A DNA stretch of 64,000 nt from an uncultured Candidatus Saccharibacteria bacterium (GTDB lineage Bacteria; Patescibacteriota; Minisyncoccia; UBA6257; 1-14-0-10-44-23): contig CAZJVT010000003.1 in assembly GCA_964549935.1 (NCBI GenBank), positions 78,634 to 142,633 on the forward strand. Reading direction: 5' to 3'. Both the position numbers and the translations under genes were made by a program. The notes under the pieces are model-generated. The model made no database searches. It worked only from the letters and a program-made list of their open reading frames with translations, and was not told where the DNA came from. Positions 1-43,106 of the stretch are shown piece by piece (position 1 is the first letter of the stretch; every line of letters starts with the position of its first letter).

Positions 1-1632
1 GACGATCTGCTGGGTGACGGTCGAGTAGTAGAAGTAGTTGCCCTTGTCGAAGCCAAGAGGGCGGAGGTCGATGCTGCCGGTGCCGAGGCCGCCGCCGTTG
101 AGAAGCCTTTCCGCGGCGAGCCGCTTCGCAGCCTCGGCCGAGGTCTTCAGCGCATCGTCGAGGTCGCGGATCGGCACCTTGGCGCCGCGCAGCGATCCCT
201 TGACCATGTGGTAGCGCCCGAGATCGCGCTCCTTGAGATCGTTGAGCGCCTGGAGGGCTTCCGGGGCGAACGCGGCCTTCGGATCCTCCTCGCAGCTCTT
301 GATGTAGGCTTCGAAGTCGAAGCCGGCCGGATCGTCCTCTGGCGCCGCATCGGCATTTCGGCGGAAGGGCAGCACCTTCGCCGCCGGCTCCTCGTCCGGA
401 GGACCGGCCTTCGCCACGATCTCGGTCGCCTCCGAGCTGAGATCCCGATCTCCGGGAGCGCCGCCATGCTCCGCCAGCGCCGCCGCGAGCTCATCGTCCA
501 CGGGAGCCGCCGCCGCGACCTGCATCGCGCCCGCGATCATCGCCTCGAGGCGCTCCATCAGGAATTCCGGATCGCCTTCTGCATCGGCGATGTCCCAGCC
601 CTCCGGCAGGCTGGCGGGAACGTCGACCTCGAAGACCTCGATAGAGCTCAGCACGTCCAGGCCCGACCGGTCGTTCTCGGCCAGGAGGCGAAGGGCGATC
701 TCCTCCATCGCCTCACGGCCGACAAGGTCGTTGTCCGGCATGGTGATGACGCGCCATCCGGCGAAGACCGAGATATCGGCATGCCGGAAATTCTTGGTGC
801 CGCCGAGCGGCGACACGAAGGGGTAGCGGCCGGCGAAGAGCCGGTTTCCCGCGTCGGCGGCCTTCTCGCCCTCGACCAGGACGCAGGTCCTGGCCCCCTG
901 CCCGTCCTCGACCTCGCCCAGCAGGTCCGCTCCGTAGATGGGCTTCGGATCATCGAACCCGATCGACGCCCATCCTTCGCTTCCGTCCTCGAAGGAACAC
1001 CACGTCACCGGGACCGGGGACTTCTTCTTCTTGCCATCCCGCACCCACTCCATGCGGAGCACGTAGCCGAGCAGGCTCCCGGCCTTGTCGCGGTAGTCGT
1101 GGACCATCGCCGGCTGGAACTGGCGGCGCAGCGGCTTGCCGTCCTCGCCCGGGGACCAGTCGCCGAGCTCCTTGTTGCGGATCCTGACCGGCTGGGTGAC
1201 GTGGGGCCCCTTCGAGCCCCGCTCCCCGCCTTCGGCGAAGAGCGGCGTTGCCGCCACCGGGACCGGAAGGATCGGCCGCGGGACCGGCGGCGAAGCGCGG
1301 CGCTGCCGGCGTTCGACCGGCATTCCGCGGCGACCCTCGACATCGCCCTTGAGGATCTCGATCGCCTTCCCGGCTTCGACACCCTCGGCCTCCATCACCA
1401 TCTTCAGGGCGCTGCCATGCGCGCCGCAGCCGTAGCAGTGGTAGTGCTGGTCGCCTTCATCGTCGAAGACCTGGAACGACGGAGTCTTCTCGGAATGGAA
1501 GGGGCAAAGGCCGATATGGCGGCCCGCAACCATGCGGAGATCCGTATAGCGCTGCGCCACCTCGAGAATGTCGACCTGCGAGAGAAGCTCCTCGATGTCG
1601 ACCTTCTCCTTGTCCCCACGACGTCTGGGCAT
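1..1632 (-). CDS. DNA primase, CHC2 zinc-finger (DnaG-like) plus Toprim-like region; C-terminus runs off the window start
   Basis: Manual minus-strand translation from ATG at 1632 (RBS GGAGGGG upstream) gives MPRRRGDKEKVDIEELLSQVDILEVAQRYTDLRMVAGRHIGLCPFHSEKTPSFQVFDDEGDQHYHCYGCGAHG. This is the CHC2 zinc-ribbon signature of DnaG-type primases. No stop is reached before position 1. The antisense plus-strand ORF 208..1707 is Arg/Leu-rich. Confidence 0.7.
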   Translation of the reverse strand, partial: MPRRRGDKEKVDIEELLSQVDILEVAQRYTDLRMVAGRHIGLCPFHSEKTPSFQVFDDEGDQHYHCYGCGAHGSALKMVMEAEGVEAGKAIEILKGDVEGRRGMPVERRQRRASPPVPRPILPVPVAATPLFAEGGERGSKGPHVTQPVRIRNKELGDWSPGEDGKPLRRQFQPAMVHDYRDKAGSLLGYVLRMEWVRDGKKKKSPVPVTWCSFEDGSEGWASIGFDDPKPIYGADLLGEVEDGQGARTCVLVEGEKAADAGNRLFAGRYPFVSPLGGTKNFRHADISVFAGWRVITMPDNDLVGREAMEEIALRLLAENDRSGLDVLSSIEVFEVDVPASLPEGWDIADAEGDPEFLMERLEAMIAGAMQVAAAAPVDDELAAALAEHGGAPGDRDLSSEATEIVAKAGPPDEEPAAKVLPFRRNADAAPEDDPAGFDFEAYIKSCEEDPKAAFAPEALQALNDLKERDLGRYHMVKGSLRGAKVPIRDLDDALKTSAEAAKRLAAERLLNGGGLGTGSIDLRPLGFDKGNYFYYSTVTQQIV

Positions 1633-1711
1633 ATCCCCTCCCGAGTTCGTTATAAGAGTGTACGCCTCTGCTTTTTCATGAACAACAGAAACCGCAGGCC
1701 GAAATGAGTGC

Positions 1712-1738
1712 AATGTTAGAAATGTTAGAAATGTAAGA
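1712..1738. repeat. Tandem iteron-like repeats AATGTTAGA AATGTTAGA AATGTAAGA in the primase/GcrA intergenic region
   Basis: Direct reading of the sequence: caATGTTAGAAATGTTAGAAATGTAAGacg. The ATGTTAG/AATGTAA core recurs at 5494..5511, 5725..5741 and 40031. Confidence 0.6.
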
Positions 1739-1837
1739 CGATCCGGCACAGCGCATGCCCGCGCTGGCCTAGCTCCGGAACGTCAGGTTGGGCTGGTCGA
1801 TGTGGAGCGGCGCTCCGGGCGAGGGTCGCCTCACCCG

Positions 1838-2326
1838 CTAGACATGCAGGCTGTAGTCTTCCTGGCCGACGATCTCATTGTTCTGGGCGCAGGGGGTGCA
1901 TCGACGATGCCCGGCATGCTCGGACATGAAGAGCTTTCCGCATGAAGGCGCAAGACACCTGCGCATCTTGGTCACCAGCTTCCAGCTCCGCTCGCCGTCG
2001 ATGACCTTGTCGTCCCTCTTCGGCAGCCGGGGAACCAGCGAGCCGTTTTCGCCGCGGCCTCGCCCAGGAAGGTTCTGGCGATTGGCGCGAAGCTGGATGG
2101 AGGCAGGGGTCCGGCCCGGCATCTTCTTGGCGATCTGCTCGGCGGAAAGGCCCTGCGCCCAGAGATCCGTCAGCATCTGCTTGTCCGCCGCGGACCATTT
2201 CGGCCGCCGGCGGGGATCATCGCCGGCCGCAAGCGTGCTGGGGACCTGGGACTTTGTCGAGCCGGCTGACTGGCTCGAGATGGTGCTCGGCTGCGAGGGC
2301 GCTTGCGGCTGCGACAAGGCGCTCAT
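1838..2326 (-). CDS. GcrA-like cell-cycle regulator family protein (N-terminal extension possible)
   Basis: Protein contains W...LTDLWAQGLSAEQIAKKM, matching the GcrA N-terminal DNA-binding signature. A Cys-rich C-terminus (CLAPSCGK...CTPCAQ) is also as in GcrA. It overlaps the upstream gene by 4 nt, indicating an operon. Confidence 0.5.
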   Translation of the reverse strand: MSALSQPQAPSQPSTISSQSAGSTKSQVPSTLAAGDDPRRRPKWSAADKQMLTDLWAQGLSAEQIAKKMPGRTPASIQLRANRQNLPGRGRGENGSLVPRLPKRDDKVIDGERSWKLVTKMRRCLAPSCGKLFMSEHAGHRRCTPCAQNNEIVGQEDYSLHV

Positions 2327-2793
2327 GCCACGGCTCCTTCGACCATGCCGGGGACCTGACGCCGTGCGCTGGCGGAGCGGGCGGCCTGGAGCCGCGGACA
2401 GCCGGCGATGTAGGAAATGACCTTCGCGGCCGTCTCCGGCTTCGCCTGCCGGCCGCTGCGCAGCCCCTGGACGAAACCGGCGTCGTTCATGACCGAGGTG
2501 CCGAAGGCGCTGACGGCGATGCCCGTCTCGGAAAGATACATCTCGATCGTGGCGAGAAGCTGCGAGCCGGTGCGCCTGGCCGAGCGCCTGAGCCGCTGAA
2601 GCTTCTCAGGGTCGAGAAGATCCGCTGCGGAAGTGCCCTTGCCGGCTATGTCCCGGCCAAGAGCGGCGATGGCTTGGTTGCTTCTTGACATGACGACTGC
2701 TGTTCCGATCGTTCCTGTCAGGCTGCCGTGGACTGCTGCACCTGCTTGTGCAGGGTGCATAAGCATGATCCTAGGACGCGTCCCAGAAGTCAA
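2323..2793 (-). CDS. Putative DNA-binding (HTH-like) protein, co-transcribed with the GcrA-like gene
   Basis: 156-aa ORF with coherent composition. The segment SETGIAVSAFGTSVMNDAGFVQGLRSGRQAKPETAAKVISYI resembles phage-type HTH regulators. It is translationally coupled to the downstream ORF. Confidence 0.4.
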   Translation of the reverse strand: MTSGTRPRIMLMHPAQAGAAVHGSLTGTIGTAVVMSRSNQAIAALGRDIAGKGTSAADLLDPEKLQRLRRSARRTGSQLLATIEMYLSETGIAVSAFGTSVMNDAGFVQGLRSGRQAKPETAAKVISYIAGCPRLQAARSASARRQVPGMVEGAVA

Positions 2794-2824
2794 GCCGATC
2801 GGCTCGCCGGAGATCTAGATTTCC

Positions 2825-2930
2825 TTCCGGAATTCCGGAAGCGAACAGGTGTAGGACGAGTTTCCGGAATGCCAGAAAATCACGGGGTAGCCTGATCGAT
2901 CGGGCGATCCCGAATCCAGGTTTCCGGAAT
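2825..2930. promoter_or_regulatory. Operator-like array of TTCCGGAA palindromes upstream of the HTH/GcrA operon
   Basis: TTCCGGAATTCCGGAA at 2825..2840, GTTTCCGGAAT at 2860..2870 and GTTTCCGGAAT at 2920..2930. The core TTCCGGAA is self-complementary. The same core recurs at 23488..23496. Confidence 0.45.
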
Positions 2931-2959
2931 TTAACCTTGTTCGACAAGCAAATCCGGGA

Positions 2960-4500
2960 TCAGGAGTCGTCGAAGGCAGCGAGATCGACGTCGCCGCCGC
3001 GGCCGCCCATCGGACCATCATCCTCGATGGCGCTTCCCGCCTTCACCGCCTCGACGGCGCCGGCGACCACGTCCTTCGCCACCTCCGAGAAGCGCGAGAG
3101 GATCTCGAAGCCCTTACCCTTCTTCGACTGGCTCAGGCGAATGCTCGCCGTTTCCGTCAGGAACATCGACGGGTCGCCGCCCATCTCCTGGAACATCGCG
3201 CAGATCTCGGCGACGTTGAAATCGCCGCGCTTGAAGAACTTGTCCAGGTCGATACCCTTCCGGGACAGGAGGGCGCGAAGCTCCGCGACCAGGTCGATGT
3301 CCTTCTTCGCGGCGACCGCGAGGATCTCGTCGATGTCGATCGCGTCGGGGAGCCGCATGCTGTCGACATCGACGTTGGATCCGGTGAGCCGGGCCAGGCG
3401 CTTGGCCTCGTCGACCAGGCGCGGCACGCTCATGACGGGCTTGCCGGTGATGGTGCCGATCTCGCCAAGCTTGATCTTGCCGTCGCCGAGCTCGCCTGCC
3501 GTCTCGGCCCATGCCTTGATCCTGGTCTGGATCTCCTTCTCGCGCTCCTCGAGCTCGGACTTCATGGCCTTGATGCGGCCAAGGTCTCCGGCGGCTTCCA
3601 GGATGTCCTCGGGAACCTCGACGTCGATGGCCTTCCTCCGCTCGGGCCATGGCGGCAACTCGCCCTTCAGGACGAAGTCGTTCCAGAAGGTGGAGCCGGC
3701 GGCGACGAGCTCCTCGACCAGCTCCGGCTGGTAGGGCACCAGCTTCGGGTGCGGCTCGAACCGGTCGAGGTCGAACATGACGATGAAGCGGGCCTTGAAG
3801 CGAAGATCGAGCGTCGTCCGGCTGAGTTCGTCGTACTGGTGCAGCTGCGATTGCCAGTAGCTGGGCACCCCGCCGGAGACGTAGGTCGGGAAGGCGTTCG
3901 CCGAGGGGCACTTGTAGTCGACAAGGATCAGGTCCCCCGGCTCGAGGCGGAAGCCATCGAGGACACAGGAGACCCCGACCTTTACGATGTCGTCCGGGCT
4001 CGAGATCATCCAGCGGTGGACGGGATGCCGGCAGCCCGAAAGCTTCGCCAGCGCATCCTCATGGCTCTTCCCGCCGACCATGGCGTGGAAGGCATCCCGA
4101 ATGACGCCCTCCGAGCGGATGCCTCGAAGCATGTCGTCGCTCGGTGCGTCCGGCATGTACGCGAGCAGCTTCTCGCCGACGGTCTGGCGCGCGGTCTTGA
4201 AGGGGCTGGGCTCGCCGCGAAGCTCGTCGACGAGACCGCCAATCTCGGATCCGCCGATGCCGGTCAGCCGGCGCATGTGCCAGTAGCACCGCTTGGTGCC
4301 GCCGCCCTCGCGCTCGAGGATCATGCCGCACCAGCGGCGCGCCTTGTCCGGATCGAAGGACTGTCGGAGATGCGGCATGCCCGACAGCACGCGCATCATG
4401 TCCTTCTCCGCCCGCGTCCACTCAGCCGTGCCGGGACGGACGATCGCCGGCAGCGGCTCGGGAGCCGCCTGCGCCGGTTTATGAGCGAGGGCGGTGCTCA
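2960..4500 (-). CDS. YqaJ/lambda-exonuclease-like PD-(D/E)XK 5'-3' exonuclease with a roughly 250-aa C-terminal extension
   Basis: Start ATG (complement) at 4500 with GGGAAGGA RBS. The protein MSTALAHK... contains GIGGSEIGGLV and LILVDYKCP motifs (GxGxSE and the E.KCP-like hallmark of YqaJ/lambda Exo). The 820-aa ORF in the track is a run-on of this frame upstream of the real start. Confidence 0.65.
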
Positions 4501-4520
4501 TGCGAGAAGATCCTTCCCTG

Positions 4521-5346
4521 TTCAGGCGACGAACGCCGGCTCCGGGCGCCGCGCCGCGGCTGGCGTCGCCGGGAGGACGAGCTGGCGGTAGCTCTCCGGC
4601 AGGTCCGGCGAGAGCCGGCGGCCGGCATTGATCTGGTAGGAGCGGAAGATCGTCGATGCCTGGTTGCCGCGGATCGTGGCGAGAGGATCCGCGGGGTCGG
4701 TCTCGACGAGGCGCGCGGTCGTGAACTCCGCGACGACTTCCTCGACCAGCTTCTCGTAGCCGAGCGTCATGTCGTTGACCAGGTCGACCGTGAGGACGTC
4801 TGCGCCGAGATCGATGTAGGAGCGCGAGTCGGTGTAGCGCTTGAAGTCGCCGGTCGCCTTGTCGATCGCATGGATCCGGACGAGCATGACGTTCTCGCGG
4901 CCGAAGCGCTCGATCAGCGGCTCGTTCTCGCGGGTGAAGCCGGAATCCGCGATCAGGACGACCGAAGGATCGCTGGGGTTCGCCTCGCCGCCCATCATGC
5001 GATCGAGGCGCTGGAGGGCGAGCTCGCCGAAGATCCTCATGCCGTGGTGCGGCTTGTAGTAGGTCTCCGACACCGCGATGTAGGCTTCGCGCGGTGTCTT
5101 GCCTAGGAACCGCGGATTTGGAAGATCCTTGACCTCCTCGAAGTGATCGGGGCCGAGCGGTCGGCCGAATTCGTCGAAGAGCCCGTAAAGCGCGTGGGTG
5201 CGCTCCTTGAGCTCGTCGGCGAACTTCAGCTTGACCGGGCTGATGCCGAACTGGCCGTTGAACCCCTCGAGCACCGACGAGGTCGCCTTGCGGACCGAGT
5301 GATCCTTGCCGCAGCGCGGCGGTCCGTTGAACAGGCAGACGATCAT
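4521..5346 (-). CDS. P-loop kinase, phage dNMP-kinase-like
   Basis: N-terminus MIVCLFNGPPRCGKDH has a Walker A with the GKD variant typical of T4-type dNMP kinases. The stop lies 21 bp upstream of the exonuclease start on the same strand. Confidence 0.45.
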
Positions 5347-5439
5347 GGCGAAAACCCTGCGGCTCGGTGTCTGGTCCCGCCATTGTGCCACGCGGCGGCG
5401 AAAGCTCCAAACCTGTCGGCACATGCTTTTACAGCGTTC

Positions 5440-5900
5440 CGGATTGATCGAGCCTCGAGGCCGTCTATCGAGGTATTGCAGTAACTTACAAGATGTTAGG
5501 CGAAATGTAATAAGAGCAACGGCGAGTAAGTTGTTGATTTTGATAAGAGCCGTGGCGTTCTCTTATATATATTATATTTCTTATAGTATAAAAATATATA
5601 TATAGAATTAAAAGCCGTCCTGGACACAGACGCGCGTGGACGGACGCATGGGGATCCATGCGGTGTAATGTATGTAATAACTGTTAGATTGCTGATTTCT
5701 CTGGGGTTTTCAGCCCTGGCGGAAATTACATCGCCTAACAGGCCAGCCGCACAAGTCATTGGCGGCGAAGAGAAATCCCTCGGATGATAGGTCGATCTCG
5801 AGGAAAGCGCAAGAACTCGCGGCGATCGCCCCCACAGGATAGGCGAGCCATCGACCGATTGGCGCTTCCGGGCTTTTCACGTATGCTGGTGGTCGGGCGC
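5440..5900. promoter_or_regulatory. AT-rich divergent promoter hub with TA-repeat core, separating the minus-strand exonuclease operon from the plus-strand helicase operon
   Basis: Sharp GC drop. TA-rich core at 5562..5610 (tcttatatatattatatttcttatagtataaaaatatatatatag). A short hairpin CCGTCC...GGACGG is at about 5617..5643. The region contains no credible ORF. Confidence 0.4.
5494..5741. repeat. Imperfect 18-bp inverted repeats bracketing the AT-rich core
   Basis: Left arm TGTTAGGCGAAATGTAAT at 5494..5511. Right arm ATTACATCGCCTAACAG at 5725..5741, which is the reverse complement apart from a 2-nt gap. This is either a MITE-like footprint or paired operator sites. Confidence 0.45.
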
Positions 5901-5919
5901 GATTAATACGAGACGCACC

Positions 5920-6576
5920 GTGACCATCCCCGGGAAATCCGACCGCGAGACGGTCATGGAAGCGCTCCTTCAGCGCATCCTCGGTCGTCTCGACCCTTCC
6001 ACCGGTTGCGTCGCCGATCTCGACGCCGCCTCCCTCGGCCTCGACGGCGCCGCCTCGAACAAGATCATGGAGCGGATCGAGGGATACGCCATGGCGGCCG
6101 AGACCTTGTGGAATGCCTATTACGGACCCGGATCCAATCCCGAAAGCGTCGAATGGTTCGATGTGCAGCAGGCACTCGCCTTCGCCGCCGCCGCCACCGG
6201 CCGCGGAAATCCGGACTTCGTGCCTGGTGCCGACAAGGCCCTGATCTCGATCTTCAATGGATCCAGGTGTGTCGAGACGATCGACATCACCGACGAGGTT
6301 GTCAGGCTCGACGCGACATCGCTCGTCGCCATGATCGCCGATCCGACGCTGTGCTTCGACCATCCGGTACTGGCGTTGAAGCTCGACCGATCGAGGCTCG
6401 ATGAACTGCGTCTTTCAAGCCAGAAGGTTTCCGACTTCCTCGGCACCGAAGATCCGACGGACGAGCTCATGGAGGCGGTCCGCGAGCGCTACGGAATCGC
6501 CGAGAGCGAGAAGCTCGTCTCCATCATCGATGCGATCGCCAGCCTCCCGGGCGGCCCGCCTGCGGTGACGATGTGA
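5920..6576 (+). CDS. Hypothetical protein (first gene of the helicase operon)
   Basis: 218-aa ORF with non-repetitive, acidic composition. It overlaps the next ORF by 4 nt. No recognisable motif. Confidence 0.5.
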   Translation: MTIPGKSDRETVMEALLQRILGRLDPSTGCVADLDAASLGLDGAASNKIMERIEGYAMAAETLWNAYYGPGSNPESVEWFDVQQALAFAAAATGRGNPDFVPGADKALISIFNGSRCVETIDITDEVVRLDATSLVAMIADPTLCFDHPVLALKLDRSRLDELRLSSQKVSDFLGTEDPTDELMEAVRERYGIAESEKLVSIIDAIASLPGGPPAVTM

Positions 6577-7463
6577 AGGAGAAGCAGATGACCGGACGCG
6601 AAGCCCTCATCATCGAGATCGCCCAGGCGATCGAGCGCGCCTTCCTTTCCTGCGGGCGGAAGGTCCTGGTTCAGCCCCATTTCACCCTCAGGGAGTGGAC
6701 CTTCCTTGTGACCGAGCCTCGCGAGGACGGCCCGCGCGGCATCGGCAGCCTGACCTTCGCCGATCGCAAGGATCTCGACCGTCGCCTTGCCATCGCCGGA
6801 GTTCCTGGCTTCACCACGACCAATGCCGTCGGAGAGAAGGGTGCGGACGACATGTGGGTGTCGATCGACTCCCGCCTTGTTGGCGCCGCCGGCTTCGATA
6901 CGGATGCCGCGGAGGCGCTCGAGATCGTCCATACCGACCAAGTAGGCTTCGCGCTGGTGAAGGAGGACCCGGAGCGTGCGATCGCCTCCGGCGCCGCCTG
7001 CCGCCTCGACGCGACGGCGGTCGTGCTTTCCCTGAGCCTGCCGGTCCTCCATCGCATCGACCAGGTCGCGCCCTTGATCCAGGGCCTCGCCGGGGTTCCC
7101 TACAAGCGCTTCGCGACGAAGGTCACTGCCGCTTCCCTTTCGGCCTACTTCGGCGTGACCACCCCGTCCGAGATCTCGCTATCGATGCTCAACTCGGCCC
7201 GCCGCGCGGCCAGGCTTGTACCGCCCAAGGACCTGGTTCCGGTGGCTGACGGTGCGTTGCCGGTATCCGAGATCCTCGTGTTCCGGACCATCGATGTCCT
7301 CTCCAGGATCGGAGCCGGCCACGACCCGCAGAGGATCTCGGCCGACATCGATGCCGTGCGCAAGGAATGGGCCGACATGGCGAAAGGGCTGGTGGCGACG
7401 CGGGAGGGAATGGCCTCGCAGCAGCCTGGCTCGAAAGTCCCGCTCACCACTTTGTCTCTCTAG
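6573..7463 (+). CDS. Hypothetical protein (second gene of the helicase operon)
   Basis: 296-aa ORF, translationally coupled on both sides. Competing minus-strand ORFs are Arg/Ser-rich. Confidence 0.5.
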   Translation: MKEKQMTGREALIIEIAQAIERAFLSCGRKVLVQPHFTLREWTFLVTEPREDGPRGIGSLTFADRKDLDRRLAIAGVPGFTTTNAVGEKGADDMWVSIDSRLVGAAGFDTDAAEALEIVHTDQVGFALVKEDPERAIASGAACRLDATAVVLSLSLPVLHRIDQVAPLIQGLAGVPYKRFATKVTAASLSAYFGVTTPSEISLSMLNSARRAARLVPPKDLVPVADGALPVSEILVFRTIDVLSRIGAGHDPQRISADIDAVRKEWADMAKGLVATREGMASQQPGSKVPLTTLSL

Positions 7464-7481
7464 AATTGCCGGAAATCCAGG

Positions 7482-10265
7482 ATGCCACTCGATAACGTCG
7501 GCTCGTCCGATCCGACTTTCGCTACGGGCGATGGTCGTCGGAGATCTACGAGGCTGGGCCGCCGATCGAATCGGATCGCCCCGGACCCCCGTTATCAGGT
7601 CCAGGCGCTCGACGACATCGCCAGCACGCTGGCCGAGAACGATCGCGCAACCGCGGTCATGGCGTGCGGTGCCGGCAAGACGCTGGTTGCTCTGTGGACA
7701 GCCGAGCGCCAGAGCGCGCGCGTCATCCTTGTCCTGCTTCCGTCTCTGTCGCTCCTCAGCCAGACGCTGAAGACATGGAAGAGGGAGAATGTCTGGGGGA
7801 GCAGGTTCAGCTACATCTGCGTCTGCTCGGACGAGACCGTCGACGCCGGCACCGACGATCCGTCGATGGACGAAGGCTCGATTGATTTCCCGATCGACAC
7901 CGACCCAGCCGAGGTGAGGAAGTTCCTCAGGTCTCGCATCGACGACGTCAAGGTCGTCTTCTCGACCTACCACTCGGCATCGATCGTCGGCGAGGCCGCG
8001 GCCAAGCTGAAAGCGTTCGACTTAGGTGTTTTCGACGAGGCACACCGGACCGCCGGCGCCGCCGGCCGCTCCTTCGGCTTCGCTCTCTCTGACAGGAACA
8101 TTCGGATTCGCAAGCGCCTGTTCATGACGGCGACGCCGCGCCACGTTGATATCCGGCATCGCGATCGTGACGGTGACTTCTGCTCCCGGTCGATGGACGA
8201 CGAGGAGATCTACGGCCCACGCGCCTACACCCTCTCCTTCGCCAAGGCGGTGCGGCTCGGGATCATCTCACGCTACAAGGTCATCGTCTCGATGATCGAT
8301 AAGAAGATGGTCTCGGATTTTGCGCGCAAGCATGGAATCACTCTCGTCAAGGGCGATGCGATCGCTGCCACGAAGATCGCCAACCTGATCGCGATGCGCC
8401 AGGCGATCGGAGCGGTCGACGCGCGCAAGATCATCACCTTCCATGGCCGCGTTCAGCGAGCGAAGGACTTCGCCTCCGATCGTGACGACGGCATCGCACG
8501 CTATCTCGACGGCTTCGAGGTACATCACGTAAACGGCAAGCAGGCCAGTGGAGAGCGCGGCGGCATCATCCGGTCCTTCGCCGAAGCCGATCGCAGCCTC
8601 ATCACGAACGCCAGGTGCCTGACAGAAGGCGTCGACGTCCCGGCGGTCGACATGGTCGCCTTCATCGATCCCAAGCAGAGCCGGATCGACATCGCCCAGG
8701 CCGTCGGCCGAGCCATGCGTAAGCCGCGGGGCCCGACGAGGAAGATCTGCGGCTACGTGGTCATCCCGTTGTTCGCCGGCATGGACGGTGATGATCTTGA
8801 AGATGCGATCAAGGACGGCCGCTTCGACGCGATCGCCGAGGTCGTCAACGCGCTGCAAGAGCATGACGAGGAACTTGTCGAGATCATCAAGGGTATCCGC
8901 GAGCGGAAGGGCGCCGGCGAGAGTTCCTATGGCGGCGAGCTCGGTGACACGATCGAAGCAATTGGCCCTTTCGTGGATCTCGACAAGCTAGCGGCGAGCA
9001 TCGCGGTCGAGGTCGCTGACCGGATCGGTTCCGGCTGGGATGAATGGTATGGGCGACTGAAGAGTTTCGCTGAACGCGCAGGACATTGCAGCGTACCGAG
9101 AGATTACAGAGAGGGCGGATTTAATCTCTCACGGTGGGTTGCTTATCAGCGCCATGCCGCAAAGAAGCTGTCGCCGGATAAGCGGGCAAAACTCGACTCG
9201 ATTGGTTTTTCTTGGAATGTGCGCGCTGATGAGTTCGATAAGGGATATTCGGTCCTCGTGGCTTATCATGCTCGCGAAGGCCATACTCGAGTCCCCTCGC
9301 GTCACATGGAAAGTGGCTTTCGCCTGGGGTCTTGGGTCGCCTCCCGGCGCAAGCACTGCGACAGAATGTCGACTACCCAGAGAGCATCGCTCGACGCGAT
9401 CGGCTTCATCTGGGATCCGTTCGCCGAAGACTTCATGCATGGACTCAACCAGCTCGTTGCTTTCAAGGCGCGCACCGGACACTGCCGGGTACAGGATGGG
9501 TACAAGTCAGAGGGGTTCGATCTCGGAACCTGGGTAGGCACGCAACGCAGGAATCGAGATACCCTGTCCACGGACCGCAAAGCGAAGCTCGATGACATCG
9601 GCTTCATCTGGGATCCGTTCGCCGAAGACTTCATGCGCGGGCTCAACCAGCTCGCTGCTTTCAAGGCGCGCACCGGACACTGCCGGGTACACCCTAAACA
9701 CAAGGAAGACGGATTTAATCTCGGGGCCTGGGTAGGTACGCAACGCAGGAATCGAGATACCGTGACAGTTGACCGTAAGGCGAAGCTCGACGCGATCGGC
9801 TTCATCTGGGATCCGCTAGTCGAAGACTTCATGTGCGGGCTCGCCGCGCTTACTGCTTTCAGAGCCCGCAACGGCCATTGCCGATTGCCTGCAGGGCACA
9901 AGGAAGGTGAATTCAACCTCGCGAACTGGGTCAATAACCTGCGCGCACGAAATAGACGAAACAACTTGCCGGCAGATCGCAAGGCGATGCTCGATGGCAT
10001 CGGTTTCATCTGGGACCCACTGACCGATACCTTGATTCGAGGGCTCGCCCTGCTCAAAGCTTTCCAATCCACCAATGGCCACTGTCGGGTGCCTTTCAGC
10101 TACAAGGTCGACGAATTCAACCTTGGAACCTGGGTCTGGAAGCTACGCAAAAGGCGAGACCTGTCGCCTGACTTCAAGGAGGCGCTCGACAAAATCGGCT
10201 TCTATGAAAACATGACCTATGCCGCGGGAGTATCAGCCAACACATCTAAAGTCATGGCTTCATGA
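7482..10265 (+). CDS. Superfamily-2 DEAH-box helicase (ResIII-like N-terminus) with a C-terminal array of helicase-associated (HA) domain repeats
   Basis: Motif I AVMACGAGKTLVAL, motif II VFDEAHR, motif III MTATP, motif VI-like QAVGRAMR. The C-terminal 400 aa are six or seven roughly 66-aa repeats with W..W/LG.WV...R and G(F/H)IWDP signatures typical of HA domains. Confidence 0.75.
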   Translation: MPLDNVGSSDPTFATGDGRRRSTRLGRRSNRIAPDPRYQVQALDDIASTLAENDRATAVMACGAGKTLVALWTAERQSARVILVLLPSLSLLSQTLKTWKRENVWGSRFSYICVCSDETVDAGTDDPSMDEGSIDFPIDTDPAEVRKFLRSRIDDVKVVFSTYHSASIVGEAAAKLKAFDLGVFDEAHRTAGAAGRSFGFALSDRNIRIRKRLFMTATPRHVDIRHRDRDGDFCSRSMDDEEIYGPRAYTLSFAKAVRLGIISRYKVIVSMIDKKMVSDFARKHGITLVKGDAIAATKIANLIAMRQAIGAVDARKIITFHGRVQRAKDFASDRDDGIARYLDGFEVHHVNGKQASGERGGIIRSFAEADRSLITNARCLTEGVDVPAVDMVAFIDPKQSRIDIAQAVGRAMRKPRGPTRKICGYVVIPLFAGMDGDDLEDAIKDGRFDAIAEVVNALQEHDEELVEIIKGIRERKGAGESSYGGELGDTIEAIGPFVDLDKLAASIAVEVADRIGSGWDEWYGRLKSFAERAGHCSVPRDYREGGFNLSRWVAYQRHAAKKLSPDKRAKLDSIGFSWNVRADEFDKGYSVLVAYHAREGHTRVPSRHMESGFRLGSWVASRRKHCDRMSTTQRASLDAIGFIWDPFAEDFMHGLNQLVAFKARTGHCRVQDGYKSEGFDLGTWVGTQRRNRDTLSTDRKAKLDDIGFIWDPFAEDFMRGLNQLAAFKARTGHCRVHPKHKEDGFNLGAWVGTQRRNRDTVTVDRKAKLDAIGFIWDPLVEDFMCGLAALTAFRARNGHCRLPAGHKEGEFNLANWVNNLRARNRRNNLPADRKAMLDGIGFIWDPLTDTLIRGLALLKAFQSTNGHCRVPFSYKVDEFNLGTWVWKLRKRRDLSPDFKEALDKIGFYENMTYAAGVSANTSKVMAS
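9390..10200. repeat. Intragenic tandem DNA repeats of about 198 bp encoding the HA-domain array
   Basis: Near-identical stretches begin near 9397, 9597, 9795 and 9996. For example, cgatcggcttcatctgggatccgttcgccgaagacttcatgc occurs at about 9397 and about 9597. Identity is at the nucleotide level, not only the protein level. Confidence 0.7.
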
Positions 10266-11081: not shown

Positions 11082-11591
11082 ATGAGGCACAAGCCGAACA
11101 TCCACCTTCCGTACACGCGGAAACAGCTCCTCGATTGGGTCGATGCCTCGAAGCTGTCGAAGGCCGTCGCGCTCCTCAAGCGTGGCAAGTCTGGCCGCGA
11201 GATCGATCTGCTCATCCATCTGGGGCTCTGCGACGTCGACGACGCCTACAAGGGCTGGCGCTTCTGGCACGGCGGCAAATGGATCGCTCTCCGAAAGGGC
11301 GCCGAGACCATCGAGCTGGGCTCCGTGCCCAACTACTCGACGTCGAAGGATGCCATGGACTTCCTTCTGTCGCTCCTGCCGGAAGCGAGCATCGCGTCCA
11401 GCTTCGAGAGCTTCGTGGATGTCGTGGCCTCGGTGACCTATGTCAAAGGACGGATCTCTCGCTATGCCGACCTGAAGATCAAGGGAGGTCGAGAGCCGTC
11501 GATCGAGGCCGCGGCGCGCTGTGGAGCCCTGCTTCGTCTTCTGCTTCTCCTTGTTGCAGACAAGGCGCGGCCCGCGAAGGCCGGGGCGTGA
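11082..11591 (+). CDS. Hypothetical protein, paralog A of a tandem pair
   Basis: Shares YSTSKDA..LL..ASI.SSF and AAARCGALLRL blocks with the next ORF. Confidence 0.5.
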   Translation: MRHKPNIHLPYTRKQLLDWVDASKLSKAVALLKRGKSGREIDLLIHLGLCDVDDAYKGWRFWHGGKWIALRKGAETIELGSVPNYSTSKDAMDFLLSLLPEASIASSFESFVDVVASVTYVKGRISRYADLKIKGGREPSIEAAARCGALLRLLLLLVADKARPAKAGA

Positions 11592-14259: not shown

Positions 14260-14372
14260 GGCTCGCGAACCAGATCATATTGCCTTCTCCGATGCGATCT
14301 CAAATCGCGGCGTGCCTGGATCCTGGGATTATGCAACTCTGATAAGTCATTTTTTTCAATGAATTAACCGAG

Positions 14373-14488
14373 TTATAGCGAGTTTATCTCAGTTTATGAT
14401 TTTTTCATAAACTTAGGTAACTTCCTTGAAATTAGGAAAGTAAGTATATATTATCAAAATCAGATAAACCGCCCTAAGGTCGCTATAA
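14373..14488. promoter_or_regulatory. AT-rich promoter with inverted repeat TTATAGCGA ... TCGCTATAA abutting the ATPase start codon
   Basis: TTATAGCGA at 14373..14381 and its exact reverse complement TCGCTATAA at 14480..14488. The ATG is at 14489. GTTTAT motifs are repeated in between. Confidence 0.4.
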
Positions 14489-19922: not shown

Positions 19923-22900
19923 ATGCACGATAAATCAACCGTCAGGCCCTCCCTCCCCGCCGTCCAGATGGCTACAGGCAGCGGTTCTGGGCCGGATGTC
20001 GAGGCCATGCCGCTCCCGGAGCTCCAGCCGGGCCAGTATTGGCGTGCCAACAGGGAGATGCCGGAGGGCGACCGCGGCCGGGAGTGGTCGGGGGCCTGGG
20101 AGGTCGGCTTTTCCTACCTGGTCAAGGACCTGAAGGTCGTCGACGGGCGCCTCCATACCGTCGTCCTGCATCCCCATCCGCTGAGCGACTACCAGCACGA
20201 CACCGAGATGCTGGCCCGGCATTTCTTCGCCGCGTTCGAGCGCGATCTCGATCCGGACGTGTCCCGTGCCGCCGACATGAAGGCGCTGCAGGAACGCATC
20301 GGGCAGATCAACCAAGAGATCGCCGACGGCCCGAGGCTGGAGGATGTCTCGACCGCCGCCCAAAGGCGCCTGATCGAAGCCGGCACGGCAACCCCTCGGC
20401 CGGAGGCGGCCGGCGCAGGCGCTCTTTCCATCAGCGAGACCGATATCCAGAAGGCGCAGAAGCGTTCGGGCGCCCTGCTGGAGGTCAGCAAGAAGAAGGC
20501 CGCCTGGCTCCAGCAGCGGGTCGAAGCCGTCGGCGAGACCGCCAGCCGGATCGCTCTCTTCGGCCGCGAGAAGGCGGAGACCGCCCTTGCCCAGGTCAAG
20601 GACGTGCTGCGATACGCGCAGCACCTCGAGGAAGGCATCGAGACGCTCGGCCTCTACACCGGCAAGGACGTGCAGGTGCAAATGCTGTGCGACGGGCCGC
20701 TCGCCTCCGACGATGCGCCGCTTTCGATCTTCCAGCGCCGTCTCTACATGGACGAGGAATTCCTTGTCCATCTGGCGGAGGGTGGCGCCACCTGGCGTGA
20801 CGTCGAAAGCTTCGGCAAGGCGCTCGGTGAAGACGAGACGCTGCTGGACCGCATCATCCCGTCGGAACGCGGCGTCGTCTGCATGCGCTATCGGCGCCAC
20901 GAGAAGCAGATCGATCTCGGGGAATTCAAGACGGTGGCCGAGGCTTTCAGCGCGGGCCTCAAGGCGCAGGAAGAAGAGGCCCGCAACAGGACGACTTTCC
21001 TCCTGATCCGAGACGGCCGTCGCGTTTGGCAGGTCTGGTCCGAGATCTCGACCGACAACAGCCCGCGCCTGTTCCCGACGATGAAGGAAGTCGACAAGCC
21101 GTTCGTCGGATGGGGCTGGCACGGAGAGGAGAAGCAGCGGATCGACCTCGAGGACATCCGGTTCTCCGACAAGCTCGAGGAAAGTCGGCGGATCCAGCTG
21201 CACTATCGCCGTCTGCTGATCCTGCTCTGGGGACTCGACGATCGCGAGAACCTGGTCGGCCTCCGCCGCTCGGGTGATACGCGCAAATTCACCGACCTCT
21301 CCTTCCAGAAGGACCGCTTCGTCTTCATTTCCGACGATGACGAGGAGCGGCTTCTCAGCACCGGCCGCCCGTCTTTCAGAAAGTTCGCCGCCGAGCACAA
21401 CGCCATGCTTCGTTCCGGCTCCCGTGTGCTTTGCCTCTGGGGAAACCTACTCACGAGCGATACCGCGCCCGGCTGCGTGAAGTCGATCGATCGACGGTCG
21501 AGCCACGGTCCGCGCGACGAGGTCAGGCTGTGGCCCGACAACGACACCGACATCCTGATTGCCAGGAAGGATGGCGACGAGATCGTCGTCGACGTCGAGG
21601 CGTCGGGCGAGAAGCGCAGCTGGATGTACGACCGATACGAGACCTCGGGCCAGACGCGTCGCATCAAGGCGCGCGTGAGCCTGACCGCCTACAGGGAAGC
21701 AAGCATCGGCTTCCTTGTGCTCGACGCGATCAAGGCCGAGGATTTGAAGTTCTACTGCGAGTCGCGACTCGAGCGGCAGAGCTATCTCCACTACCTCTCC
21801 ACGTTCATTGCCGCCCGCAAGCATGTCGAAACCGTGCGCGAGGCCGAAGTCGAGTCCCGCGATGTGCTCGCCAATGGCCTGAAGGCGGCGGGCTTGTTCG
21901 ATGACGAGCGTTGTGCCGGCGTCCTCGACGAAGCGATCCTCGCTTGGCGCGCACGGAACCGCGGCAAGGCGTTGCCCGGTCCGCTCGATCCAGAATGGAA
22001 GGCTGCCGCGACCGCCATCTACGGCTTCTGCTGGATCGCGCTCGGCAAGGATATCGACCTGGAGCCGATCGCGACCGACCTCGCGGCGAAGGGCGGCCGC
22101 AAGCCGCTGCGCCTGGTGCTGACAGGCAACAACCAGGTGATCCTCTATGCGTCCTCGACGGCGAACGAGATGCAGGACGCGCTCGGGAACTGGCCATGGG
22201 TCACCCGGATCGCTTGCCGGCGACTGCGGAAGGCACCATGGCTGGCGGTCGAAGGAGAAAGCTTCGCCATCCTCCCGGCGCGCGCCGCGGACGAGCGCGT
22301 GCTGACCGAATGGCCGGAGGCGACGAAATGGATCGACCTCGTCGATCACGACAAGATCGGCCCCGATGGCAGGCGCGAGCTCGTTGCCTGGCTTAGAGAC
22401 GCCGCCGCGGCTGCTCCTCAGCTGATCGCGCCCTCCCGCCATCTGGTCGAGACCATGCTGAAGGAGGCGACCGAGCTCAGCCGCCTGAACTCGAAAGGAA
22501 TGGTGAGGCGGCCCGACGTCGTGATCCCGTTCGCGATCGTCAGGAAGAAGGAAGTGGAATTCCGCCAGCCGGACGCATGTCGTGTCCTCGCAATGCGCAT
22601 CGATGCCTTCTGGTGGTGCTGGCGCCATGGGCTTGCCGCGGAGACCGAAGAGGCTCTGAGGGGGCGTTACAGCAGGCCGGGGACGCATGTCCGGCAGCTT
22701 CGCGGCGAAAACGATCCGGAAGGCGAGGATCGCGCCTGGTCGGGAGACTTCGAGGCGTCGCTGGTCTCGTTGTCGTCCAAGGATGTGGTCAGGGCTCTCG
22801 ACGATGGGCAGAGCCTCCCGAACCTCATCGATGCCCATGTCTACGACAGCGTTCCGATCAACGAAGGCCACTTCGAAGCCCTGCAGGACATCCTCCGCGA

Positions 22901-23165
22901 TGGCCGTAGCAACTGGATGTTCGGGGAGAGGTTCGCCTACCGCAAGAATCGATCGAAGCCTGCTGCCTGGGACTTCGTTTTGAAGATCAAGGACGCCTGG
23001 GCGCTCGCCGTTCCGTTCAGCGACAGCTCCCGACGTCCCGGGAAGCCGGCCCCGAAGCCGGAAGCGGATGACGAGGCGGAGCAGGAGGACGCCAGACCGG
23101 CCGAGCAGGACGATGAGGATGATCAGGATGACGGGCCCGCAGCGCAGGAGGATCTGAATCCATGA
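19923..23165 (+). CDS. Large hypothetical protein (1080 aa) with an acidic C-terminal tail
   Basis: Continuous ORF with natural composition. Both long antisense ORFs are Arg/Gly/Pro-rich. -35/-10-like TTGACG...GCTAAACT lies upstream. No motif recognisable by eye. Confidence 0.6.
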   Translation: MHDKSTVRPSLPAVQMATGSGSGPDVEAMPLPELQPGQYWRANREMPEGDRGREWSGAWEVGFSYLVKDLKVVDGRLHTVVLHPHPLSDYQHDTEMLARHFFAAFERDLDPDVSRAADMKALQERIGQINQEIADGPRLEDVSTAAQRRLIEAGTATPRPEAAGAGALSISETDIQKAQKRSGALLEVSKKKAAWLQQRVEAVGETASRIALFGREKAETALAQVKDVLRYAQHLEEGIETLGLYTGKDVQVQMLCDGPLASDDAPLSIFQRRLYMDEEFLVHLAEGGATWRDVESFGKALGEDETLLDRIIPSERGVVCMRYRRHEKQIDLGEFKTVAEAFSAGLKAQEEEARNRTTFLLIRDGRRVWQVWSEISTDNSPRLFPTMKEVDKPFVGWGWHGEEKQRIDLEDIRFSDKLEESRRIQLHYRRLLILLWGLDDRENLVGLRRSGDTRKFTDLSFQKDRFVFISDDDEERLLSTGRPSFRKFAAEHNAMLRSGSRVLCLWGNLLTSDTAPGCVKSIDRRSSHGPRDEVRLWPDNDTDILIARKDGDEIVVDVEASGEKRSWMYDRYETSGQTRRIKARVSLTAYREASIGFLVLDAIKAEDLKFYCESRLERQSYLHYLSTFIAARKHVETVREAEVESRDVLANGLKAAGLFDDERCAGVLDEAILAWRARNRGKALPGPLDPEWKAAATAIYGFCWIALGKDIDLEPIATDLAAKGGRKPLRLVLTGNNQVILYASSTANEMQDALGNWPWVTRIACRRLRKAPWLAVEGESFAILPARAADERVLTEWPEATKWIDLVDHDKIGPDGRRELVAWLRDAAAAAPQLIAPSRHLVETMLKEATELSRLNSKGMVRRPDVVIPFAIVRKKEVEFRQPDACRVLAMRIDAFWWCWRHGLAAETEEALRGRYSRPGTHVRQLRGENDPEGEDRAWSGDFEASLVSLSSKDVVRALDDGQSLPNLIDAHVYDSVPINEGHFEALQDILRDGRSNWMFGERFAYRKNRSKPAAWDFVLKIKDAWALAVPFSDSSRRPGKPAPKPEADDEAEQEDARPAEQDDEDDQDDGPAAQEDLNP

Positions 23166-39994: not shown

Positions 39995-40108
39995 ACGGCG
40001 CACCGCCCGGGAACAAAACGGATTCTCCCGAATGTTACAAACCTGTATGCTGTTGGTTATGCGTTTATCTTCGACCAGTGACTAGGAAACGAGCAGCGAT
40101 ACCAGCCC

Positions 40109-42915: not shown

Positions 42916-42945
42916 ACCGTCCTGCGGACGGTCTTTAAGATTTTG
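42916..42945 (+). terminator. Candidate terminator hairpin after the topoisomerase gene
   Basis: CCGTCCtgcGGACGG stem followed by TCTTTAAGATTTT. Confidence 0.35.
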
Positions 42946-43106
42946 TCGGTTTTATCGATTTGGAAGATTTGAATTTTATCGAAAAATGGAATTGGAAGAG
43001 ACTTCGCTGCATTTTTTTCTCAGCGCTTTCTCACCTTTCAAATATCTTGAAGAGGACGGAGCAAGAACACTTCTTGTTTCGGCAAGGTTCGTAGATCGGC
43101 AACGAG
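42940..43106. promoter_or_regulatory. AT-rich region with short direct repeats (TTTTATCGA x2, GGAAGA x2)
   Basis: gattttgtcggttttatcgatttggaagatttgaattttatcgaaaaatggaattggaaga. Sharp GC drop between the topoisomerase and the next operon. Confidence 0.3.

Follow-up and report, generated by a model that had tools for sequence, protein, structure and literature searches.

The subject of this analysis is a non-coding island in a 64-kb stretch of DNA (the window; 64,000 nucleotides of contig CAZJVT010000003.1, from an uncultured Candidatus Saccharibacteria bacterium), which is considered here as the candidate replication origin of a mobile element. All coordinates are positions within this window, and the island is the gap 5347-5919. 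It comprises the 573 bp between the gene starts of 4522-5346 on the minus strand and 5920-6576 on the plus strand, and the two operons that begin there diverge. The first gene to the left encodes a P-loop protein resembling deoxynucleoside monophosphate (dNMP) kinase, and the first to the right an acidic protein of 218 amino acids (aa). Further left, the gene of a primase-helicase starts near 1632 on the minus strand and continues beyond the window. Gene calls were taken from the public contig L001, which matches window positions 1-9418 at 100%, and replace the raw list of open reading frames (ORFs). Two entries of that list are misleading: the ORF 208-1707 (+) is spurious, being antisense to the primase-helicase gene, and the ORF 2960-5422 (-) is an artefact that merges the genes 2960-4501 and 4522-5346, which lie in different frames.

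The island differs from its surroundings in base composition, with a G+C content of 65% in the window, 51% in the island and 40% at the island centre. The centre contains a core of 49 bp (5559-5607) that is 94% A+T. This core is the least stable 50-bp duplex in the window, with -43.5 kcal/mol against a mean of -79.5 and a standard deviation of 4.5, that is, about 8 standard deviations off the window mean. The edges of the core form an imperfect inverted repeat, TCTTATATATAT / ATATATATAGA. The adjoining G+C-rich spacer contains two palindromes in the window, CCGTCC/GGACGG at 5614-5644 and GCATGG/CCATGC at 5646-5661. The original prediction, made from the letters of the sequence, had described a 570-bp non-coding island with an AT-rich core of TA repeats, and both parts of this description were borne out.

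Copies of the hexamer TGTWAK are arranged around the A+T core. The window contains 15 copies on both strands, eight of them in the island and three at 1714-1737. Those of the island are located at 5486-5491 (-), 5494 (+), 5506 (+), 5664, 5673 and 5682 (all +), and 5730 and 5740 (both -); three stand to the left of the core and five to the right. The outer pairs are opposed, with 5494 and 5506 on the plus strand and 5730 and 5740 on the minus strand. The three copies beginning at 5664 form an array with a 9-bp period, and the array at 1712-1738 has the same period, its hexamers being located at 1714, 1723 and 1732. Local dinucleotide shuffles of the island yielded 0.84 expected copies, and none of 2000 shuffles reached the observed eight. 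Pairs of TGTWAK at 9-bp spacing were essentially absent from the shuffles. The motif that the original prediction saw as common to the island and 1712-1738 is therefore real and not due to chance. Its supposed recurrence at 40031 did not survive, because that site is a lone relaxed hexamer, TGTTAC, without a 9-bp array, and is therefore within chance. Thus, TGTWAK arrays are found at two loci of the window, the island and the region upstream of the primase gene.

Conserved spacing in related elements

Among 5.8 billion clustered proteins, the protein encoded at 5920-6576 finds just two relatives, with identities of 61% and 41%. The contigs of both relatives (L004, which represents one element together with L005 and L008, and L006) carry the matching diverging genes, separated by gaps of 576 and 568 bp. 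Every hexamer cluster keeps its position in the alignment of the window with L004 and L006. In this order, the distance from the left cluster to the core is 47, 47 and 48 bp, the core itself measures 49, 48 and 50 bp, the core is separated from the triple array by 56 bp in each case, and the triple array from the inverted pair by 37 bp in each case. In the spacers, by contrast, about half of the positions differ between elements in an ungapped comparison. Since the geometry is kept across three independent elements while the spacers diverge, selection appears to act on the geometry itself. The core is nearly invariant in the alignment (TCTCTTATATATATWATATTTCTWATAG...AATATATATATA), and a block of 30 nt surrounding the right inverted pair keeps 95% identity even between the window and L006, the most distant pair. 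As a whole, the island is as conserved as the adjacent gene (60-69% versus 60-72%), and its centre is more conserved.

This comparison modifies two details of the original prediction. The 18-bp inverted repeats that it described exist as inverted copies, TGTTAGGCGAAATGTAAT at 5494-5511 and ATTACATCGCCTAACA at 5725-5740, which share an exact 10-nt arm and, offset by a 2-nt indel, a 6-nt arm. However, because the spacer between the hexamers differs in L006, the conserved units, to judge from the alignment, are the TGTWAK hexamers and not the 18-bp repeat, which appears to be two hexamers and a spacer that matches by chance in the window element. The CCGTCC/GGACGG hairpin is present in the window as described but is not kept in L004 and L006.

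The fixed spacing and the free spacer sequence point to a protein-DNA assembly more readily than to a gene or a structured RNA. Minus-strand ORFs do cross the island in all three elements. Small proteins were rejected because the start, end and sequence of these ORFs differ, so that they are not conserved as proteins, and because the substitutions in the island have no codon (3-nt) periodicity across the three elements. When the island was folded as single-stranded DNA, z values of -2.9 and -3.2 were obtained, and the outer arms are able to pair. Of these ten outer pairs, three are lost in L004 or L006, and the direct-repeat hexamers change along with the inverted ones. Consequently, a functional RNA or single-strand hairpin was rejected, and the shared sequence is better explained by predicted protein binding sites than by paired arms. 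A scan of the island against Rfam gave nothing above threshold, and a scan for tRNA genes gave none. The only Rfam match, which was sub-threshold, was to the Xanthomonas small RNA sX13 at 5771-5866 (-), with 24 bits versus a gathering score of 50 and an E value of 0.026; it overlaps the conserved block GAAATCYC...GATGATAsG. The features of the locus are collected in Table 1.

Table 1. Coordinates of the features of the island and of the genes and sites around it, with the basis of each assignment
Feature	Position	Strand	Basis
Whole non-coding island	5347..5919	.	gene calls; crossing ORFs not kept as proteins; no codon periodicity
Candidate proximal promoter of leftward operon, TTGGAG-N17-CACAAT	5382..5410	-	TTG and A2/T6 positions invariant in alignment
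Left iteron cluster: CTTACA (inverted TGTAAG) 5486-5491, TGTTAG 5494-5499, TGTAAT 5506-5511	5486..5511		position kept in L004 and L006
Candidate IHF-like site AATCAACAACTTA	5527..5539	-	core TCAA-N4-TTA common to all three elements
A+T core TCTCTTATATATATTATATTTCTTATAGTATAAAAATATATATATAGAA, proposed DNA unwinding element	5559..5607	.	duplex stability and three-element alignment
G+C-rich spacer, exactly 56 bp, with element-specific palindromes	5608..5663	.	length 56/56/56 in three elements
Triple iteron array TGTAAT-gta-TGTAAT-aac-TGTTAG, 9-bp period	5664..5687	+	hexamer scan, spacing comparison
Inverted iteron pair (minus strand TGTTAG-gcga-TGTAAT)	5725..5740	-	37 bp from triple array in all three elements
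Candidate proximal promoter of rightward operon, TTGGCG-N17-TATGCT	5859..5887	+	TATnnT invariant, 17-nt spacing kept
Primase-helicase, 1102 aa, first 544 codons in window; proposed hexamer-binding initiator	1..1632	-	gene call, domains, fold
CTCTTATA(AC), probable -10 of primase promoter	1651..1658	-	55 nt from array, 19 nt before primase ATG
Triple array AATGTTAGA AATGTTAGA AATGTAAGA	1712..1738	+	80-105 bp upstream of primase-helicase start codon
GcrA-like gene, upstream of 1712-1738 array	1838..2326	-	gene call
YqaJ-type exonuclease, 513 aa	2960..4501	-	gene call and domain match
P-loop protein resembling dNMP kinase, 274 aa, first gene leftward	4522..5346	-	PHROG 139, E 5e-23 (phage dNMP kinases)
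Acidic 218-aa protein, pI 4.3, first gene rightward	5920..6576	+	gene call, homologue search

The primase-helicase and repeat arrays beside its homologues

The most plausible partner of the hexamers is the primase-helicase, whose relatives are found on phages and plasmids. Its N-terminal CHC2 zinc ribbon is that of a DnaG-type primase domain, and its C-terminal half carries a Walker A motif (GAGKT) and a Walker B motif (DEAE). An AlphaFold model was made from 22 sequences for the homologue P0095, which is 34-36% identical over both halves, and reached a predicted local distance difference test score (pLDDT) of 83.7. The top match of this model in the PDB is the Aquifex DnaG primase. Later matches include the Cch helicase of the staphylococcal cassette chromosome SCCmec, the primase-helicase of the Staphylococcus aureus pathogenicity island (SaPI) SaPI5 and PriRep1 bound to double-stranded DNA, and further matches include NrS-1, African swine fever virus, poxvirus D5/E5 and MCM helicases. 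Judged by this model, the fold class of P0095 is that of self-loading initiator helicases.

The original prediction had placed the triple array at 1712-1738 next to a primase gene. The array does adjoin the gene, and since the gene lies on the minus strand and starts near 1632, the array is upstream of it. The -10-like sequence CTCTTATAAC at 1651-1658 lies 55 nt from this array; standing 19 nt ahead of the ATG, it probably serves the primase promoter as its -10 element. The 8-mer CTCTTATA has just two copies in the window, one at 1651-1658 and the other at the left edge of the A+T core. The stop codon of the primase-helicase gene is followed by only 21 bp.

Hexamers of a related type accumulate beside distant homologues of this protein. 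The 8-kb linear plasmid paNv_CH14 of Arsenophonus nasoniae encodes the C-terminal domain only, with 29% identity to aa 523-941. Its gene is directly followed by four ATTTGTAATGCT repeats, by four inverted copies about 180 bp away and by further TGTAAT pairs. This array contains 13 TGTAAT in 290 bp, in convergent orientation and with a 12-bp period, around a very A+T-rich middle; TGTAAT is also the commonest hexamer of the island. On the Atlantibacter plasmid pLH84-a-B, a full-length homologue with 34% identity is followed by a gap of 570 bp, in which GGTAACA, GGTAATA and TATTACC arrays surround A+T-rich DNA. On the Phaeobacter plasmid pP24_g, eight GTAAC/GTTAC are found in the 327 bp after the gene. 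Counts of GTAAY in the Arsenophonus, Atlantibacter and Phaeobacter gaps are 14, 12 and 9, compared with 2.4, 3.9 and 2.0 expected, a 3- to 6-fold enrichment that none of 1000 local shuffles reached in any of them. The gap after the gene holds the densest GTAAY-type cluster of each of the three loci, and in an unbiased k-mer count GTAAY-type words are at or near the top. On plasmid p02 of Azospirillum sp. TSH58 (L075), the region 11450-11570, downstream of a primase-helicase homologue, contains ACACA/ATACACA repeats followed by the TA-rich stretch TATTATTATATATATCAATAAC; it may represent an origin of the same kind that has diverged.

Proposed origin function and alternative readings

The central 255 bp (5486-5740) are most likely a vegetative replication origin of the self-loading primase-helicase type. 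The island as a whole is, on balance, probably a SaPI/P4-type replication origin of a rare high-G+C mobile element that carries a type IVB secretion system (T4BSS) gene. The original prediction had listed an origin-like region among its possibilities, and this option is now favoured by the duplex instability, the fixed spacing, the arrays of the plasmid relatives and the fold of the homologue. GTAAY arrays beside helicase-domain homologues on three unrelated small replicons point to the helicase as the binder, and the protein that recognises the hexamers is therefore probably the element's own primase-helicase.

In the proposed mechanism, the 1102-aa primase-helicase would bind the TGTWAK hexamers, probably via the region C-terminal to its ATPase, and would assemble on both flanks of the 49-bp core. 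The core would then melt, the helicase would load itself, and its own primase domain would prime synthesis. The candidate IHF-like site at 5527-5539, proposed from its resemblance to the published consensus WATCAANNNNTTR, may introduce a bend into the left arm. The triple array that precedes the primase gene could serve in sensing and autoregulation of primase-helicase expression, or could be a second cis site like crr of phage P4.

The closest known counterparts are SaPIs and related phage-inducible chromosomal islands (PICIs). SaPI origins contain 6-12 penta- or hexanucleotide iterons, to which Rep binds through its winged-helix domain; they flank a central A+T-rich region in equal halves, and at least two per side are oppositely oriented (PMC9371898). 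Like the origins of SaPIbov1, SaPI1 and SaPI5, the island has short iterons split around an A+T-rich centre and opposed pairs. Origins of this type have at least six repeats of 5-8 bp in two groups, and an SF3/AAA+ helicase initiator that is often fused or paired with a primase; the island has three hexamers on the left and five on the right of the core, two on either side being opposed. The element also encodes an SF3/AAA+ initiator with a primase, its fold being judged on the homologue and not on the window protein. The homologue model matches the structures of the SaPI5 primase-helicase and PriRep1, and primase and helicase are fused in the window element as they are in SaPI5. There are also differences. 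The SaPI origin lies directly downstream of rep, whereas the island, 3.7 kb off, sits in the gap between diverging promoters, and the initiator gene is preceded by a small array. The primase domain of the window element is of the DnaG type with a CHC2 zinc ribbon, and sequence similarity between SaPI Rep and the window protein is undetectable, so that the match is at fold level only. The iteron sequence of the island, its 9-bp period and its near-invariant TA-palindromic core have no described counterpart.

Phage P4 offers a second parallel. Its alpha protein combines primase, helicase and a C-terminal origin-binding part in one polypeptide. At its ori, copies of the octamer TGTTCACC facing either way flank A+T-rich DNA, and a second repeat set, crr, several kb away is needed in cis. 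The window element resembles this system in its single primase-helicase polypeptide, its short repeats in two orientations and its distant second set. It differs in its helicase and primase families and in its repeat sequence, and its second set consists of three hexamers only, which overlap a probable promoter region.

Iteron plasmids such as RK2, P1, F and pPS10 have 17-22-bp iterons with a phasing of about 22 bp, winged-helix Rep proteins encoded next to them and DnaA boxes. The island shares with them the repeats, the A+T-rich unwinding element, an adjacent G+C-rich stretch and extra repeats near the initiator gene, which in these plasmids serve autoregulation or copy control. Rep proteins are also described as using the A+T-rich region sequence-specifically (PMC4081077). 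In contrast, the repeats of the island are 6 bp long with a spacing of 9-12 bp, and the best matches to DnaA boxes in the island carry 2 mismatches. No Rep_3/TrfA-type gene was seen, and the neighbouring ORFs had no match to a Rep family. On these three grounds the island does not match a classical iteron plasmid oriV (Rep_3/TrfA). In Vibrio cholerae, the origin of the phage-inducible chromosomal island-like element (PLE) lies in non-coding DNA that carries repeats and separates operons, at a distance from repA, as established by deletion and electrophoretic mobility shift assay (PMC7145576). The island is similarly located in a non-coding gap apart from the initiator gene, while the PLE initiator is of the RepA_N family and its iterons are long and semi-palindromic.

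What appears to be new here is the iteron sequence, its apparent family-wide conservation, the strictly kept distances, the TA core with its near-invariant sequence and the location apart from the initiator gene. The analysis provides a concrete candidate origin and initiator for a mobile-element family that is almost absent from databases. It suggests that fusions of a DnaG-type primase with an SF3-like helicase, which occur on phages, phage-plasmids and small plasmids, recognise GTAAY-type hexamers. If this is true, the origins of such replicons would be predictable from sequence, and the SaPI model of a self-loading helicase would extend to Proteobacteria and to large elements with a type IVB secretion system.

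Several observations weigh against an origin. The island does not lie directly downstream of the initiator gene but 3.7 kb away, while in the relatives L015, L073 and L074 the hexamer arrays do follow this gene directly. The array that adjoins the initiator gene of the window element is located upstream of it, unlike in SaPIs and the three plasmid relatives. GC skew over the 64-kb window has no clear origin signal. The A+T core is kept almost base for base, beyond what easy melting needs, and the unit of triple array, 55-56 nt and TCT(T)ATA recurs before the primase gene, where it is promoter-like. As regards the homologues, the GTAAY pattern was picked after the sequences had been inspected, and the phage relatives PY223 (Bordetella) and L072 have no hexamer arrays beside the primase gene. 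The Arsenophonus homologue aligns to aa 523-941 alone, outside the presumed DNA-binding tail, and the fold was predicted for P0095 and not for the window's own 1102-aa protein.

A transcriptional control hub without origin function, for which the recurrence of the unit of triple array, 55-56 nt and TCT(T)ATA chiefly speaks, is an unlikely reading. In this case the hexamers would be operators or activator sites of an element-encoded DNA-binding protein, and the core edges would be the -10 elements of face-to-face promoters for the diverging operons, as in the P2/186 switch, with a promoter of the same type driving the primase gene. The position of the island between diverging operons agrees with such a role, as does the occurrence of CTCTTATA within the window only at the left core edge and 19 nt before the primase ATG. 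At the primase gene, 55 nt separate the array from this motif; in the island, 56 nt separate the array from the mirrored edge of the core, and the relative orientation is the same at both loci. Two basic proteins (pI 10-11), one of 145 aa that looks helix-turn-helix (HTH)-like by eye and one GcrA-like, are encoded upstream of the primase array. The original prediction had proposed operator sites for an element-encoded regulator; the 55 nt between array and CTCTTATAAC keep that idea in play, but neither the HTH protein nor the GcrA-like protein could be tied to the hexamers. The 145-aa protein has no match in Pfam or PHROGs, and the island contains neither CtrA boxes nor GANTC sites. Both operons have their own conserved sigma-70-like candidate promoters near their start codons, and the central module is therefore not needed as an operon promoter. 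Convergent starts about 16 bp apart would be unusual, and a simple consensus scan called no promoter, including the leftward candidate at 5382-5410. Finally, GTAAY arrays follow helicase-domain homologues on three unrelated small replicons. An operator role and origin function may nevertheless coexist.

A combined version, which must be regarded as speculative and quite unlikely, would take a triple hexamer array with a 9-bp period, the free sequence of 55-56 bp next to it and TCT(T)ATA as a portable melting module driven by the initiator and placed both at the origin and at the initiator's promoter. The mirrored core edges would then be face-to-face promoters, and binding of the primase-helicase would fire replication and simultaneously toggle transcription between the replication/transfer operon and the rightward accessory operon.

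An origin of transfer (oriT) is very improbable. Under this explanation, the hexamers would bind relaxosome accessory proteins, one of the element-specific G+C-rich palindromes would be the relaxase hairpin and the rightward operon the leading region. A gene for the T4BSS protein DotI/IcmL lies about 7.6 kb left of the island, co-oriented with the leftward operon. The rightward genes, which run nearly all in one direction and include Mom-like, Lar, UvrD, topoisomerase III and DnaG-type primase genes, resemble leading regions with their anti-restriction, modification and repair functions, and the first rightward protein is acidic (isoelectric point (pI) 4.3). The oriT of R388 likewise lies between diverging genes, with arrays of 9-bp direct repeats and with IHF sites. 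On the other side, no relaxase was found among the window ORFs scanned against Pfam, the element extending beyond the window. Nothing like a conserved nic motif is apparent, the palindromes that would guide a relaxase vary between the elements, and the hexamers track the primase-helicase family on non-mobilizable plasmids.

Still less credible is a site of fixed geometry for some other DNA transaction, be it recombination (attP- or res-like) or partition (a centromere). The strict spacing, variable spacers, both orientations, IHF-like site and dyad symmetry of the core would suit such a site. However, neither a recombinase gene nor a ParA/ParB gene was found next to the island in the three elements, the core arms are about 23 bp apart, which is too far for the overlap region of a tyrosine recombinase, and the link between hexamers and helicase family favours replication.

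A MITE-like (miniature inverted-repeat transposable element) or other repeat insertion with 16-18-bp terminal inverted repeats, also raised by the original prediction, was rejected as practically excluded: the arms 5494-5511 and 5725-5740 begin with TGT, end with ACA and enclose 247 bp, but there is no second copy in the window, a scan of 185,579 genomes with a 24-mer of the core gave one chance match (Brachyspira), viral and JGI metagenome contigs gave no match to it, BLAST with the island and the first 12 kb of the window found nothing among plasmids and phages, the flanks (CAAGA / GGCCA) have no target-site duplication, and elements diverged to 41% protein identity keep both the location and the internal distances, with an interior that has changed less than the arms.

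An integron attC site was considered as well. Such sites have the form 5'-RYYYAAC ... GTTRRRY-3' and measure 57-141 bp. The attC reading was rejected because the order in the island is reversed (GTTAGGC ... GCCTAAC), the span is 247 bp and GTAAG replaces GTTAG in L004. The right-arm 18-mer has 56 matches in metagenomes, none of them related to the island. About 20 low-G+C JGI contigs (among L016-L071; for example L017 990-1007 and L018 2606-2623) carry a repeat ...ATAACGTCGCCTAACAGG... after gene ends, in an arrangement resembling attC cassettes, which matches no Rfam family; it apparently shares the 18-mer with the right arm of the island by chance.

Neighbouring genes and further A+T-rich regions

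The genes adjoining the island include replication and recombination functions, namely the dNMP-kinase-like protein, the YqaJ exonuclease and a helicase. Homologues of the P-loop protein beyond the window element and the L004 element were followed on two contigs, both of which are phage replication modules without the island. The 218-aa acidic protein has no match in Pfam, PHROG, NCBIfam or PDB, and its AlphaFold model was unusable (pLDDT 42). PDB sequence searches with the ORFs 19923-23165 and 37619-39994 gave nothing useful.

Two further A+T-rich regions were noted in the window. The first, at 14330-14488 (L004 8960-9108), is a non-coding region upstream of a STAND/AAA_16 NTPase gene and is kept in both elements. 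It forms the second least stable duplex of the window and contains GTTAT-type repeats and a palindrome, TTTTCATAAACTT..., a motif unlike TGTWAK. The second, at 42935-43050 after the topoisomerase III gene, is 67-75% A+T and ranks as the third to fourth least stable duplex of the window.

The gene content to the right of the island differs between the elements. At 7482-10265 the window encodes a DEAD/ResIII helicase with six tandem helicase-associated (HA) domains, which is absent from the matching position of L004. In its place, L004 has an HTH/HipA pair and a PLD-like gene at 2734-5320, and this part of the elements therefore appears to be a variable accessory slot.

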